Assembly (NCBI GenBank): GCA_016191425.1
Contig: JACPOR010000008.1
Coordinates: 13,835 to 77,834, forward strand
Source: Chloroflexota bacterium
Lineage (GTDB): Bacteria; Chloroflexota; Limnocylindria; Limnocylindrales; CSP1-4
Direction: 5' to 3'
Length of the DNA: 64,000 nt
Shown here in pieces: positions 50,169 to 58,766 of the stretch. The notes under the pieces are model-generated. The model was not told the origin of the DNA and searched no databases. It saw nothing but the letters and a program-made list of their open reading frames with translations. The translations under genes and the position numbers were made by a program. The first letter of the stretch is position 1; each line of letters starts with the position of its first letter.

Positions 50169-51815
50169 CTAGTAGATCGGAGTCGCAGGACTGATCGCCT
50201 CGAGCCAGGCCTTGATGTCCCGAAGCAGGGCTGCTCCGCCGGCGCCGTCGTTGGCGCGATGATCGACGCCGAGCACCATGTTCATGATCGAACGGATCGC
50301 GATGACGTCGCCCTCGGGCGTCTCAACGACCACCGGCCGCTTGGTGATCCGGTCCATGGTCACGATTCCGACCTCGGGGACGTTCATGATCGGCATGACC
50401 ATGTTTGTACCGAGCCAGCCGGTGTTGTCGACCGTGAAGGTCCCGCCGCCGAAGTCGTCCACGCGGAGCTTCCCGGCCCGTGACCGCTCGGACACCGCCG
50501 CGATGGCGATATTGATCCCGGAGATCGAGAGCTGGTCCACGTCCCGGATGACCGGCACGATCAGGCCGTCGGCCACGGCGACCGCGATCCCGACGTTGAT
50601 CCGGCGCTTGGCCATGAGTCCCTGTTCGGTCCAGTGGGCGTTGAATGCGGGATTGCGGCGCAGCGCCTCGGCCGACGCCTTGACGACGAAGGGCACGAAG
50701 CTCAGCGGGATCCCCTCCCGAGCCTGGTAGTCCTTCTTGTTCCGTTCGCGGAAGCGGACCAGACTCGATACATCGACCTCCACTTGTACGTAGGCATGCG
50801 GGACCTGGAGGGCACGGGTCATCTGCGCGGCGATTCCCTTCCGCATCTGGGTCATGGGAATCAGGACCTCGTCCGCGCCGGCCGGGAACACGATGCCGGG
50901 GCCGGGCGACGTCGTTCGAGCCGGGGTCGATGCATCGGCCGCCGCTGCGACGACCGGGCTGCTCGACCGGCCCACCTGGGCAGGGCTCGGCGCGACAGTC
51001 GGGATTGACGTTCCGCGGGTGGCGTCCTGCTTGCCGACCGGCTGCCCGGTCCGCTGCGACTCGACGTAGTCGGTGACGTCTTGCCGGGTAATCCGGCCGC
51101 CGCCACCGGTGCCGACGACCATCGCCGACTGGAGACCGTGCTCGCGGAGCAGGCGCCGAACCGCGGGCGTCATGCGAGCGTCGGGATTGCCCGGGAGCTC
51201 GTGGAGCGCCCGCTCATCCGAGCCGGCGGGCCCAGGGGTCGTCATGGGCGCCGCGGCCGACGCGGTGACGGGTGGTGCCGCAGCCCCTGCCGCGGGTTCG
51301 GGCCCCGCCGGAGCGGAGGCTGCCGGAGCGGAGGCTGCCGGAGCGGGCGCTGGCGGAGCAGTGGGCGCGGGCGTTGCCGCGGGCGCCGCTGGAGCAGTGG
51401 GCGCCTCCGCTGTTGCTGCGGGCGCCGCTGGAGCAGTGGGCGCCTCCGCTGTTGCTGCGGGCGCCGCTGGAGCAGTGGGCGCCTCCACTGTTGCTGCGGA
51501 CGCCATTGGAGCAGTGGGCGCCTCCACTGTTGCTGGCGCCGCCGCATGCTTTACGGGCGCGGCCGATGCGGCGGCACTGCCGACCTCGTCGATGATCGCG
51601 ATCTCGGCATTGTTCGGAACGGTCTCACCCTCCTGGACGAGGATTTCGCTCAGGATGCCTTCGTACGGGGATGGGACCTCGGCGTTGACCTTGTCTGTGA
51701 TCACCTCGAGCAACGGCTCGTATTTGTCGATGTGATCGCCCGGCTGCTTGAGCCACTTGCCGATCGTTCCCTCGGCCACGCTCTCGCCCAGCTGGGGCAT
51801 CGTCACCTTGACCAC
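50169..51815 (-). CDS. bkdB: 2-oxoacid dehydrogenase E2 (branched-chain type)
   Basis: MPQLGESVAEG...TDKVNAEVPSP lipoyl domain, TPAVRRL E3-binding domain, DHRANDG catalytic motif; GAGGAGG RBS. Confidence 0.93.
   Translation of the reverse strand: MVKVTMPQLGESVAEGTIGKWLKQPGDHIDKYEPLLEVITDKVNAEVPSPYEGILSEILVQEGETVPNNAEIAIIDEVGSAAASAAPVKHAAAPATVEAPTAPMASAATVEAPTAPAAPAATAEAPTAPAAPAATAEAPTAPAAPAATPAPTAPPAPAPAASAPAASAPAGPEPAAGAAAPPVTASAAAPMTTPGPAGSDERALHELPGNPDARMTPAVRRLLREHGLQSAMVVGTGGGGRITRQDVTDYVESQRTGQPVGKQDATRGTSIPTVAPSPAQVGRSSSPVVAAAADASTPARTTSPGPGIVFPAGADEVLIPMTQMRKGIAAQMTRALQVPHAYVQVEVDVSSLVRFRERNKKDYQAREGIPLSFVPFVVKASAEALRRNPAFNAHWTEQGLMAKRRINVGIAVAVADGLIVPVIRDVDQLSISGINIAIAAVSERSRAGKLRVDDFGGGTFTVDNTGWLGTNMVMPIMNVPEVGIVTMDRITKRPVVVETPEGDVIAIRSIMNMVLGVDHRANDGAGGAALLRDIKAWLEAISPATPIY
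51379..51534. repeat. 4 x 39-bp coding tandem repeat in the E2 Ala/Pro linker
   Basis: Units at 51379, 51418, 51457 and 51496 encode ATAEAPTAPAAPA variants. Confidence 0.9.
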
Positions 51816-52032
51816 TGAGTCGGACCCTCCTCGCGGAACGTGGGGCGCGTGTCCTGCCGGGCCCGCCGACGGGATGGCACGTAGTGTCGCCCATCCGGCG
51901 TTCATATGCCACCGCCTCCGAACCGTGCGGGTGCGCGGGCGAACTGCGATCGGTGTTTGCGCGATCTCCCGCCCAGCCCGACCGGTCCGCCCAGCGCGAC
52001 CAGGGCCCGCGCGGCAAGCCCAGGGCCCAGAT

Positions 52033-52097
52033 ACGAACCGGGTTCGTGCTATCGCCCGCGGAAGCCAATGTTCGGCCCAATTACGAACCGGGCTCGT
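52033..52097. repeat. Pair of 15-bp palindromes, 50 bp apart
   Basis: ACGAACCGGGTTCGT at 52033 and ACGAACCGGGCTCGT at 52083, each preceded by GGCCCA-NN-T. Confidence 0.85.
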
Positions 52098-52893
52098 GGA
52101 AGGTGCGGGAAGCTGCCGCTGACTCCGATGCGGCCTGTCGAGTCGTGCTCGACACGAGCGTGGAAGGGCCGGCGATCGCCGCCCGAACGCGTCGTCGACT
52201 GACAGGACCGCACCTACCACGAACGACGTTCGTAAATGGCAGAAATATGAGTAGTCCAGTGGCACCGGACGGCGCCTGGAGCCAGCCGCGGGCCGCGACT
52301 CCGGCGAGAGGATACGTTCGCGCCAACACAGCGTCATGGCTGGCAACGCGTCGGCGCGCCGTGGACGAATCGGGCAGAACAAGCATCCGAGCCACCACCC
52401 GGCCGCGCCAGCCCGCGCGCTCGAGTGCGACCCTGAGGGCAACGCGAGCCTTCATGTCGTGCGTGCGAAGCGTTTCCTCGACGGACGTGAGTTGTGTCTT
52501 CACCTCGACGACAAGCACGGTCGAGGTCGACGGATGCCAGGCGAGGACGTCGATCGATCCACGGTCCGCGTAGATCGCGAACGTCACCTCCGGAATCACG
52601 ACCCAGCCGGCTGCATCGAGGACCGCCGCTGCCCGGCCCAGGAGGGCCGCGTGCCCCTCGTCCACCAACCGGTCGATGTCGCCCCCGCGCCACCGGATGG
52701 TGACGGTGAGATCAGCGCCGAGCTTCTGAACGAGCTCGTCGAGGATGCGGACGCGGACGCCGCCGAGTTGGCCTCGTTCGATGAGCGACACGAGATCCTG
52801 GCTCACCCCGGCAGCCTCGCCGAGATCCGTTTGGCGCAGACCCTTCCTGATCCGGAGGGCTCGAATGGTCCGCCCAAGTCGAACGGCATCCAT
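52081..52893 (-). CDS. XRE-type HTH fused to PD-(D/E)XK nuclease-like domain
   Basis: IRALRIRKGLRQTDLGEAAGVSQDLVSLIERG HTH; PEVTF...GSIDVLAWHP...LVVEVKT nuclease motif. Confidence 0.9.
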   Translation of the reverse strand: MDAVRLGRTIRALRIRKGLRQTDLGEAAGVSQDLVSLIERGQLGGVRVRILDELVQKLGADLTVTIRWRGGDIDRLVDEGHAALLGRAAAVLDAAGWVVIPEVTFAIYADRGSIDVLAWHPSTSTVLVVEVKTQLTSVEETLRTHDMKARVALRVALERAGWRGRVVARMLVLPDSSTARRRVASHDAVLARTYPLAGVAARGWLQAPSGATGLLIFLPFTNVVRGRCGPVSRRRVRAAIAGPSTLVSSTTRQAASESAAASRTFHEPGS

Positions 52894-52980
52894 AGCGGGG
52901 ATGGTGGCGGGATGGGCTTACGTCGTGATCATCCGGCGGTGGCCGGGCGTCGCGTCTCCGCCGCACGAACTCGCGCCAAG

Positions 52981-53164
52981 TCCGATCCGGGGTTCGGCGA
53001 TCCCGAGGACCGCCAATCCGCGCCCAGTCGCCTCACGCCCAGTCGCCTCGCAACCAATCCGATCCGGGGGCCGGCGATCCCGAGGGCGAGCCAATCGGAA
53101 CCCACGCCGATCGGAACCCACGCCGATCGGCGCCAACCCGCCCACGCCGATCGGCGCCAATCCG
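52981..53164. repeat. Nested short direct repeats upstream of the HTH-nuclease gene
   Basis: ~29-bp TCCGATCCGGGG..CGGCGATCCCGAGG at 52981 and 53058; CGCCCAGTCGCCTC at 53021 and 53036; CCCACGCCGATCGG at 53101, 53117 and 53141. Confidence 0.85.
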
Positions 53165-53173
53165 TCCCCTCGA

Positions 53174-54157
53174 TCAGTACGCGGCGAGCTTCCTGATGCC
53201 GTCGGCGATCTTCTCCGGATTGACCATGAACCAGTCCTCGAGGACGTGGTTGTAGGGCACCCCGGGAACGTCCGGCCCGGCGATCCGTGTCACGGGCCCG
53301 TCGAGGTAGTCGAACGCCTCCTCAGCGACGATCGCGGCCACCTCGGCACCGTAGCCGCCGAACCGGTTGTCCTCGTATACGACGAGGCACTTGCCGGTCT
53401 TCCGGACGGAATTGAGGACCGTTTCCTTGTCGATCGGACGGAGCGTACGGAGGTCCACGACCTCCACGCTGATCCCCTCGTCCATGACGACATCCGCGGC
53501 CTCGAGCGCGTAGTGGGCCATCAAGCCATAGGCGATCACCGTCACGCGCGAGCCTGCGCGGGTGACCGCCGCGCGGCCGAGCGGGATCGTGTAGTCCGTG
53601 TCCGGCACGTCGCCGCGGACCGATCGGTACATCTTCTTGTGCTCGAAGAACAGGACCGGGTCGTCGTCGCGGATCGACGAGCGGAGCAGGCCCCTGGCGT
53701 CGTATGGCGTCGACGGAATGACGATCTTGAGGCCCGGGATGTGGGTGAAGAACGCCTCGACCGACTGGGAGTGGTAGAGCGCGCCGTGCACTCCCCCGCC
53801 GTACGGAGCCCGGATCGTCATCGGGACGCCGAACCCGTTGTTGGATCGGTAGCGCATCCGGGCCGCCTCGGACAGGATCTGGTTGAACGCCGGGAAGATG
53901 AAGTCGGCGAACTGGATCTCGGCGACGGGGCGCAGCCCGTTCATCGAGGCGCCGATCGAGGTTCCGACGATCATCGATTCGGTCAGCGGGGTATCGATGA
54001 CGCGATCGTCACCGAATTCGGCCCACAGCCCGTCCGTCGCCAGGAACACCCCGCCTTTCTTGCCCACATCCTCGCCGAGCACGATCACCGTCGGATCGCG
54101 GCGCATCTCGTCGGCGAGCGTTTCGCGGATCGCCTCGATGAAGGTCTTCAGGGCCAT
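53174..54157 (-). CDS. bkdAB: 2-oxoacid dehydrogenase E1 beta (branched-chain type)
   Basis: GEDVGKKGGVF, DTPLTES, EIQFADF, GALYHSQS, FFEHKK. Confidence 0.93.
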   Translation of the reverse strand: MALKTFIEAIRETLADEMRRDPTVIVLGEDVGKKGGVFLATDGLWAEFGDDRVIDTPLTESMIVGTSIGASMNGLRPVAEIQFADFIFPAFNQILSEAARMRYRSNNGFGVPMTIRAPYGGGVHGALYHSQSVEAFFTHIPGLKIVIPSTPYDARGLLRSSIRDDDPVLFFEHKKMYRSVRGDVPDTDYTIPLGRAAVTRAGSRVTVIAYGLMAHYALEAADVVMDEGISVEVVDLRTLRPIDKETVLNSVRKTGKCLVVYEDNRFGGYGAEVAAIVAEEAFDYLDGPVTRIAGPDVPGVPYNHVLEDWFMVNPEKIADGIRKLAAY

Positions 54158-58144: not shown

Positions 58145-58400
58145 CGGCGGATCGTAGCGTCTCGGGTCGGGGGATGCCACCAGGAAAGCTGCGCACCCGG
58201 GTCGCTGACGTGGCGCTCGATGTTCGACGTCAGGCCATGAGCCGCGACTCCCCGCTCGCGAGAGATGGGTACAGCGGCGCGCGGGGGCCGGCCGGCCCGC
58301 TCTTCCACCAAATCTAGGGACACGACCCGTCGGTCGAGCGCCGGGCATCACCGCGATGCGCTCGGTGAGCGGGTCGGTGGCCACGAGATTGCCGTCTCTC

Positions 58401-58605
58401 ACGAACCGTGTTCGTGTTACGGGCCCGCCTGCGCTGAACCGGGCCCACGTACGAACCGGAATCGTACAAGGCCCATCTGTGTGCCACCTCGCCTGGGTGA
58501 ACGGTCTGCGAGCGTCGGGCCGAGCACGCTCGCGCCGGCGTCCTGTAGCGCGGACGGCACAAGTCCCGACGGAACCGTACCTACGACGAACCGGGATCGT
58601 ATCTG
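58401..58605. repeat. Three solo copies of the ACGAACC-type palindrome
   Basis: ACGAACCGTGTTCGT at 58401, ACGAACCGGAATCGT at 58451 (50 bp apart) and ACGAACCGGGATCGT at 58586. Confidence 0.8.
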
Positions 58606-58766
58606 AGTCGCGCCGGTGCCGAGGGTCTTGAACTCCGGCGCACGTGGGGGCCCGCCGCTCCGCAGGCAGGCAGTGGACTGGCACCCGACAGGCACCAGTC
58701 GCCTACCCCGGCGCACATTGGGCTCGCCTGGCGCGCGGGAATGTCACGCGGCGGCCGACGCCCGAC

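Follow-up and report, generated by a model that had tools for sequence, protein, structure and literature searches.

A candidate partnership between a restriction-endonuclease-fold gene family and palindromic repeat modules in Limnocylindria

We analyzed a 64,000-nucleotide stretch of a Chloroflexota genome (GenBank assembly GCA_016191425.1, contig JACPOR010000008.1, positions 13,835 to 77,834; hereafter the window), in which a gene for a protein with an XRE-type helix-turn-helix (HTH) and a PD-(D/E)XK nuclease fold (52893-52081, minus strand) ends in a module of three short palindromes. Some 9-10 further loci of this genome carry the same module but not the gene. We put at roughly 50% the probability that gene and module form a Limnocylindria-specific nuclease/repeat partnership. 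Its working would resemble that of repetitive extragenic palindromic (REP) doublets forming hairpins (REPINs) and their REP-associated tyrosine transposases (RAYTs), or that of insertion sequences (IS) and transposable elements of the miniature inverted-repeat kind (MITEs), with a different enzyme fold. On this reading, each cassette copy consists of its own upstream region, one XRE-nuclease gene and a 3' inverted-repeat module. The anatomy of the module, the modeled fold, the expansion of the family, the association of gene and repeat, the insertion polymorphism and the co-occurrence across genomes are direct observations; binding, cutting and mobilization by the XRE-nuclease protein are inferred.

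The palindrome module and its gene-free copies

The module at the end of the gene is of the type that we call P, spans about 215 nt (52024..52239, minus) and reads, in the sense of the gene, as a P3 arm, a variable interior of about 99 nt, a P2 arm and P1. The P3 arm (52208..52239, minus) lies within the coding sequence, encodes P219-G229 (PFTNVVRGRCG) and carries the palindrome 52219-52233. Its inverted partner, the P2 arm (52077..52108, minus), spans the stop codon and holds the palindrome 52083-52097, which has one arm mismatch and shares a single base with the TAA stop (52083-52081). P1 (52024..52048, minus) repeats the outer arm at a distance of 50 bp from P2, and its palindrome (52033-52047) is a perfect 6+3+6. 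P2 and P3 form 32-nt inverted arms that are 81% complementary and 99 nt apart. An earlier, sequence-only reading of this DNA had described two 15-bp palindromes 50 bp apart, one of them overlapping the stop, and these are exactly where it placed them. It overlooked the third palindrome and the paired arms, and its view of the palindromes as mere marks of the cassette end gives way to one in which they are parts of a three-palindrome module that overlaps coding sequence and also occurs without the gene. With up to one mismatch allowed, the window contains 5 occurrences of the palindrome pattern where 0.18 would be expected, and 0/100 shuffles reach 5. Folded as a single strand with DNA parameters, a 236-nt stretch gives one long hairpin and a P1 hairpin (−58.7 kcal/mol, z −3.6), and 0/200 shuffles were equally stable.

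Because the P3 arm codes for residues 219-229, ahead of an RRRVR motif (residues 233-237) that is invariant in 20/20 relatives, it is best taken as coding sequence of the family and not as a late insertion. The family-conserved protein ends near residue 238 (about 52180); residues 240-270 are read from the module and show no conservation at the protein level. In orthologues at 67-74% identity, stop codons fall earlier, inside the aligned tail, which makes both the stop's overlap with P2 and residues 240-270 peculiarities of this genome. A LexA box or other regulon box was considered and dropped, since the conserved flanks and fixed three-site architecture exceed an operator. The arm core GTTCGTG, compared by eye, does not fit the integron attC core-site pattern GTTRRRY.

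The source genome (2.38 Mb, 68.8% G+C, 56 contigs, 92% complete) is G000 in our numbering, in which C numbers denote its contigs, L numbers extracted loci and other G numbers relatives. The exact palindrome occurs 13 times in it and a reversed-pattern control 0 times, against about 0.06 expected by an estimate from base composition. When up to two mismatches are allowed, the palindromes fall into clusters at 11 loci, all built on one architecture: P1, P2 and an inverted P3. Since the copy at the C27 end is nearly identical to that at the C42 start, the two are probably one locus and the contigs probably abut. The start-to-start distance from P1 to P2 is exactly 50 bp in 11/11 modules. That from P2 to P3 is 125, 125, 126, 135, 135, 136 (four times), 146 or 157 bp, with steps near the DNA helical repeat; because these classes approximate whole helical turns, they hint, from few independent events, at recognition on duplex DNA. 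Among the 11 aligned copies, arms and outer ends are conserved and interiors are not, as in an element bounded by terminal inverted repeats, and no remnant of the XRE gene was found upstream of the other module loci. As a discrete repeat, the module measures about 165-240 nt, carries three 15-bp palindromes and is mobile or at least insertion-polymorphic.

Gene-free modules are mostly intergenic and lie in both orientations relative to their neighbor genes. One is in the window (58390..58607, plus; palindromes at 58401, 58451 and 58586); this copy (58401-58600) has no counterpart at the orthologous place in relatives, one of which has 82 bp there. Another (C53:149421-149628) lies within an insertion of ~380 bp that is absent from 4/4 aligned relatives, the closest of which, G047, has 65 bp between the same flanks. 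A third, outside the window, sits in frame inside a 1,354-codon dnaE-like open reading frame (ORF; C50:3955-8019, L116:56-4120) with PHP, Pol III alpha, finger and HHH domains. There, an in-frame insertion of ~290 residues splits the Pol III alpha domain; it comprises a complete P-type module (C50:5833, 5883, 6019) and a GRGTGYG-type tandem repeat, with no interrupting stop. The closest gene-free copy (L001, G000:C6; 5139-5650 and 5884-6395) is 84% identical over 222 nt and has three tandem outer arms. It lies between a tRNA-like stretch, recognized by translation pattern only, and an htpX-like gene, and a GC-rich short tandem repeat resembling CCCAGCCCGCC precedes it. P-type modules stand within a few hundred bases of several contig ends (C56 end, C12 end, C27 end, C42 start and near the end of C6), and modules probably break the assembly.

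The nuclease-fold protein and its family

Pfam assigns residues 5-62 to HTH_31 (E 3.5e-10; 40.5 bits, cut-off 27), and HTH_3 reaches 29.7 bits (cut-off 23), which places the protein in the XRE family of HTH proteins. Structural matches of this domain to C.AhdI, ClgR and HipB have Z scores of 10-11.7, and the NCBIfam model couple_hipB scores 35 bits, below its cut-off of 71.65. The C-terminal part has no Pfam family. In an AlphaFold model built with 20 relatives, the predicted local distance difference test (pLDDT) score exceeds 90 across residues 73-218, and the chain is disordered beyond residue 223. The predicted domain has the restriction-endonuclease-like alpha/beta core of the PD-(D/E)XK superfamily. 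Its best structural matches cover residues ~80-222, with 105-116 residues aligned at 10-22% sequence identity: XisH (2okf, Z 10.6), AF1548 (1y88, Z 10.1), the nuclease end of Upx (9wuf, Z 9.7, 22% identity), NucS (2vld, Z 9.6) and Can2 (Z 8.7). Foldseek matched the model to PfoI, NucS, the R2 RLE and SduA. Among the 20 relatives, D115, E130 and K132 are invariant and E102 is kept in at least 90%, giving the E...D...E-x-K motif. Together, the HTH_31 match, the fold matches and these four conserved residues bear out the initial assignment of the protein as an XRE HTH joined to a PD-(D/E)XK domain.

XisH (the fdxN-element excision controlling factor), AF1548, NucS and the C-terminal domain of Upx have the fold in common with this domain, but they are without the N-terminal XRE HTH and the RRRVR tail, both of which are present here. 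A predicted fold in common with XisH, NucS and the others need not mean a function in common. Searches of NCBIfam, PADLOC and PHROGs matched the HTH only, apart from weak matches of the nuclease core to the Upx and PDC-S02 models, and an ESM Atlas look-up returned only Chloroflexota clusters without a functional name.

The family is multi-copy, with up to 11 matches per genome of the genus. It is present in 24/24 genus genomes searched as against 1/16 of the neighboring family; of 151 genomes sampled across the phylum, 9 have the nuclease domain, every one of them a member of the class to which the window belongs, and the source names of family members are Chloroflexota and 'Candidatus Limnocylindria'. 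Our count took in stop-spanning inverted repeats that measure 20 nt or more, enclose a loop of 80-200 nt and have one arm in the coding sequence and the other at or after the stop. They occur at 16/60 family genes and at 1/300 control gene ends of this genome, and a repeat score of at least 13 is reached by 18/60 family genes and 4/300 controls. Because the family genes are kin, the contrast of 16/60 with 1/300 is overstated; the positives are still spread over the tree.

The arms differ between paralogues yet stay complementary. In paralogue C25a (38% identical; C25:39241-40014, L055:3242-4015), 43-nt arms enclose a 133-nt loop at the same protein position; the arm sequence is unrelated to P-type and recurs without the gene at 18 other loci (e.g., C37:12003, C2:17939, C21:43624 and C40:29757). 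In the near-complete relative G018 we tested three paralogue modules: gene-free copies turned up for two of them, one with at least 10 loci and the other with about 5, and for L076, the third, there were none. Paralogue-specific arm types were found for 2/6 paralogues here and 2/3 in G018, with the module copy at the 3' end only. In another family of this class, the equivalent codons carry a TTGCC-N4-GGCAA palindrome, and one to three copies follow downstream, again spaced 50 and 100 bp apart; two of its genomes (G217 and G134) show only 1-2 other loci. The check that the sequence-only reading proposed, whether the 3' flanks of paralogues carry the palindrome, comes out positive in kind, in that the family is multi-copy and paralogues have inverted repeats of their own, but not in sequence, which differs among paralogues.

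Gene and repeat also co-occur across genomes. At least two exact P-type palindromes are present in 6/9 genomes with an orthologue of at least 67% identity (the window genome included) versus 0/52 others, among them G003, G068, G069 and G070, which are about as close by flanking DNA identity.

Proposed mechanism, known systems and rival explanations

In the mechanism that we propose, an HTH dimer would recognize its cognate 15-bp palindromes, and cleavage by the nuclease domains would fall on the paired arms or close to them, the arms being brought together by looping of the DNA or extruded as a hairpin or cruciform. The module on the gene would serve as the home copy, and those without a gene would be non-autonomous and moved or copied in trans. 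Since the family conserves the inner arm as coding sequence, it makes most sense to regard the copy on the gene as the source of the gene-free ones and not as an insertion into the gene. The bolder version, which we think less likely than not, is that of a new class of bacterial selfish DNA in which an HTH-fused, sequence-specific restriction-fold nuclease, in place of a DDE, HUH, serine or tyrosine enzyme, would mobilize its own palindromic mini-elements, the master copy would lie in the last codons of the enzyme gene, and paralogues and repeat families would co-diversify within one bacterial class.

Of the known systems, REPIN/RAYT is one of those closest in working. As set out in the sections of Bertels & Rainey 2011 (PMC3116915) on which we draw, short palindromes occur there as hairpin-forming inverted pairs, mostly between genes, and an enzyme gene of few copies lies beside one of them. 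Measured against those sections, the present case is alike in that inverted, hairpin-capable palindrome doublets are dispersed between genes and, for some paralogues, a particular repeat group goes with a particular enzyme gene, the gene being few and the repeats many. It differs in that the enzyme is an XRE-HTH plus PD-(D/E)XK protein and not an HUH/Y1 one, the repeat overlaps the 3' coding end of the gene, three palindromes stand at a fixed 50-bp offset, and copies number tens, not hundreds. A search for the Y1 family PF01797, which did return matches from control genomes, returned 0 from the window's genome at its 92% completeness. Near-empty sites in relatives (described below), the multi-copy family, the paralogues' 3' repeats and the dispersed gene-free copies make the REP/RAYT analogy a fair one for how the system may work. 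The sequence-only reading had proposed an analogous nuclease-plus-palindrome element, which is supported in part; no defined ends and no target-site duplication of a gene-carrying element were found.

IS/MITE pairs, in the portions of the review PMC10969869 used here, offer a second comparison: a non-coding inverted-repeat element of ~200 nt that is insertion-polymorphic, with a coding relative that has the same arms. Unlike the autonomous parent of such a pair, the gene here is not enclosed, both arms lying within or after its last 55 codons; no DDE, serine, tyrosine or HUH transposase domain was found here, nor any target-site duplication. The review does not use the word 'nuclease' in its main text. 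The Rickettsia palindromic elements (RPEs), as the same portions of the review present them, are similar in having in-frame copies in coding genes, represented here by the XRE tail and the dnaE-like ORF. They belong to another lineage and have another sequence, whereas the copies here are mostly intergenic and linked to a candidate partner enzyme. The literature that we searched on Limnocylindria repeats, Chloroflexi MITEs, restriction-endonuclease-like enzymes with bacterial MITEs, and XisH/XisI describes no such pairing, supplements aside.

Several observations weigh against the partnership. Both arms are at the 3' end, so that the gene is outside the repeat-bounded unit, and the proposed mechanism does not account for its changes of place and orientation. 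No target-site duplication was found in the flanks of the 11 aligned copies or in one filled/empty pair, where neither a duplication nor a sharp junction is readable because the flanks are too diverged, and the Logan contigs of four metagenome runs (contigs only), one of them probably the source, contained no excision or inversion joint at module or cassette, a result that does not speak for the absence of such joints. No repeat passes the filter at 44/60 family genes. Few or no gene-free copies exist for 4/6 paralogues here (C50, C25b, C5b and C4), for 1/3 in G018 and for both modules tested in the other family of the class; paralogue C50 has tandem 89-bp repeats downstream and no dispersed copies. 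Exact palindromes are absent from 3/8 relatives with a close orthologue (G014, G052 and G057). Repeats near gene ends are also common in this genome, where 45/150 control ends match at least one other locus and 2/150 match at least 14, and the genomes compared are related metagenome-assembled genomes, so that counts across them are not independent.

The best-placed alternative, which we consider unlikely, is that the protein is a transcription factor. Its nuclease fold would then be a dimerization or effector domain, or that of a nicking regulator, and the palindromes would be operators; MITE-borne sites, moved otherwise or by recombination, would extend the regulon, with the 3' copy serving autoregulation or as a roadblock. 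Such a regulator would be in keeping with an HTH closest to operator-binding repressors and antitoxins (C.AhdI, ClgR, HipB and HigA2), with 15-bp palindromes, which are typical of HTH-dimer sites, with a helical-turn P2-P3 spacing that suits looping repressors, and with the mostly intergenic position of the gene-free modules. Conservation of the catalytic-type residues, invariant at D115, E130 and K132 and nearly so at E102, would instead argue for an active nuclease. The sites are at the gene's 3' end and not at its promoter, one module copy is inside the dnaE-like coding sequence, and module interiors decay while the arms persist, all of which speak against this reading.

We find it improbable that an unrelated transposase moves the modules as ordinary MITEs, with the 3' ends of XRE genes as a preferred target or a site of local duplication and the gene as a bystander. 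The genome is repeat-rich, no element ends enclosing the gene were found, and most family genes are without detectable gene-free copies, as such MITEs would have it. The inner arm, however, is family-conserved coding sequence followed by the invariant RRRVR, and so was not inserted; the arm type at this codon position varies from paralogue to paralogue; among close relatives, modules are found together with the cognate orthologue; and no Y1/RAYT transposase was found in the genome at its 92% completeness.

Even less probable is an action of the inverted repeat as RNA, in which a 3' stem-loop stabilizes, terminates or regulates the mRNA and the gene-free copies are terminators or stabilizers akin to REP, bacterial interspersed mosaic element (BIME) or enterobacterial repetitive intergenic consensus (ERIC) sequences. 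A stable fold (computed, as noted, with DNA parameters) and arms that vary between paralogues while keeping their complementarity would fit a stem. An Rfam scan of 51500-53500 with E up to 5 gave noise only, though, and modules lie in both orientations relative to neighboring genes, their spacing classes track the DNA helical repeat, and palindromic 15-bp cores at a fixed 50-bp offset would be needless for an RNA stem. We rate as very improbable a toxin-antitoxin or anti-phage defense gene, whose HTH, as antitoxin or sensor, would be joined to a nuclease effector in a variable defense islet: the nuclease core matches Upx and PDC-S02 weakly, the HTH likewise CapH and controller proteins, and STAND-type NTPases occupy the slot of some relatives, but PADLOC and PHROGs reach significance for the HTH only, the block contains no partner gene such as the adjacent toxin of type II (HipB/HigA-type) systems, and the gene-free modules and their co-occurrence with the gene would go unexplained.

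The E1-beta/E2 slot and what the partnership would mean

As first described, a block of about 1.35 kb (51816-53173, 1,358 bp) parts E1-beta from E2, and it has neither transposase nor integrase: its ORFs contain no such domain in Pfam or NCBIfam, and Pfam matches were found for 0/3 further long ORFs tested, leaving the XRE-nuclease gene, a 270-aa ORF, as the sole credible gene. The upstream flank is E1-beta (54253-53174, minus), preceded by lpd (56834-55266, minus) and E1-alpha (55569-54157, minus). The downstream flank is the E2 acyltransferase (51815-50169, minus; Pfam Biotin_lipoyl, E3_binding and 2-oxoacid_dh), followed by lipA (50164-49103, minus). Between the E1-beta stop and the upstream region of the XRE gene lies a strain-specific spacer (52937..53173) with a 39-nt direct repeat (52970-53008 and 53047-53085, 85% identical) and a 16/24-nt tandem repeat at 53101-53164. 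By eye, the 39-nt repeats, upstream of the XRE gene, look like degenerate outer module arms. The spacer sequence differs in the related metagenome population X2, which has the gene beside E1-beta (Logan contigs).

We examined the DNA downstream of E1-beta in 44 genomes of the genus, of which 40 were judged. Fourteen genomes have the family gene in the slot in co-orientation and 7 have it reversed, and E2 is reached without it in 15, four of which have gaps of 140-173 bp. Other genes fill at least 4 kb of the slot in 3 genomes, and the contig is too short to judge in 5, one of them (G001) having the gene and E2 on another contig. In total, the slot holds the family gene in 22/40 judged genomes. 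The near-empty gaps agree with the earlier suggestion of an insertion. Its further claim, of a co-oriented insertion that spares operon expression, finds no support: 7/22 slot-resident genes are opposite, and E2 keeps an upstream motif of its own.

This motif, GGATGGGCGACACTA (51882..51896, minus), lies ~70 nt upstream of the E2 start. Across the genus, a GACACTA-containing motif stands 60-80 nt upstream of E2 in 11/12 loci inspected, empty sites included, and the twelfth has CAGACTA. A scan for sigma-70 and terminator consensus sequences yielded no promoter and no hit at this motif, which is a candidate promoter or control element of E2. Because it is kept even at empty sites, the gap is probably the boundary of two transcription units and not the interior of an operon. 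The slot is probably a hypervariable boundary between an E3-E1alpha-E1beta unit and an E2-lipA unit that tolerates many kinds of cargo.

Besides the family gene, the slot houses small conserved proteins without a family, SPFH, SnoaL, STAND and LuxR-type ATPases, GNAT, TetR, DUF488 and MFS. In many relatives (L018, L021, L022, L035, L037, L041, L043, L051 and others) one or two small genes of 112-173 codons, with LRxILEPYR and HDWFAGV motifs and no Pfam family, begin about 30 bp or less (range 3-46 bp) after the E1-beta stop. G021 (L004) has an apparent decayed remnant of such a gene where the window genome has tandem repeats. In the inverted slot genes (L022 and L017) the palindromes are again at the gene's 3' end, which indicates that gene and module travel together. 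Slot-resident genes do not form one clade in the tree but are interspersed with copies from other loci; the starred branches force at least three label changes for co-oriented and at least two for opposite genes, in a tree whose row L006 is labeled 'else' although slot-resident. Many contigs break straight after E1-beta or at modules.

These results correct the picture of the operon, in that the E1-beta/E2 gap in the genus is a cargo slot that probably separates two transcription units. Many dispersed bacterial palindromes and MITE-like repeats have no known partner enzyme; here, a paralogue-specific link to a nuclease-fold DNA-binding protein recurs, and the case predicts cognate binding, arm cleavage and mobilization in trans. 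If the partnership is real, a restriction-endonuclease-fold enzyme would join the short list of enzymes that spread mini-elements, and part of the repeat load and of the contig breaks of Limnocylindria would be explained. It would also show a route by which elements enter coding sequences, through the gene's own tail and in the dnaE-like ORF.

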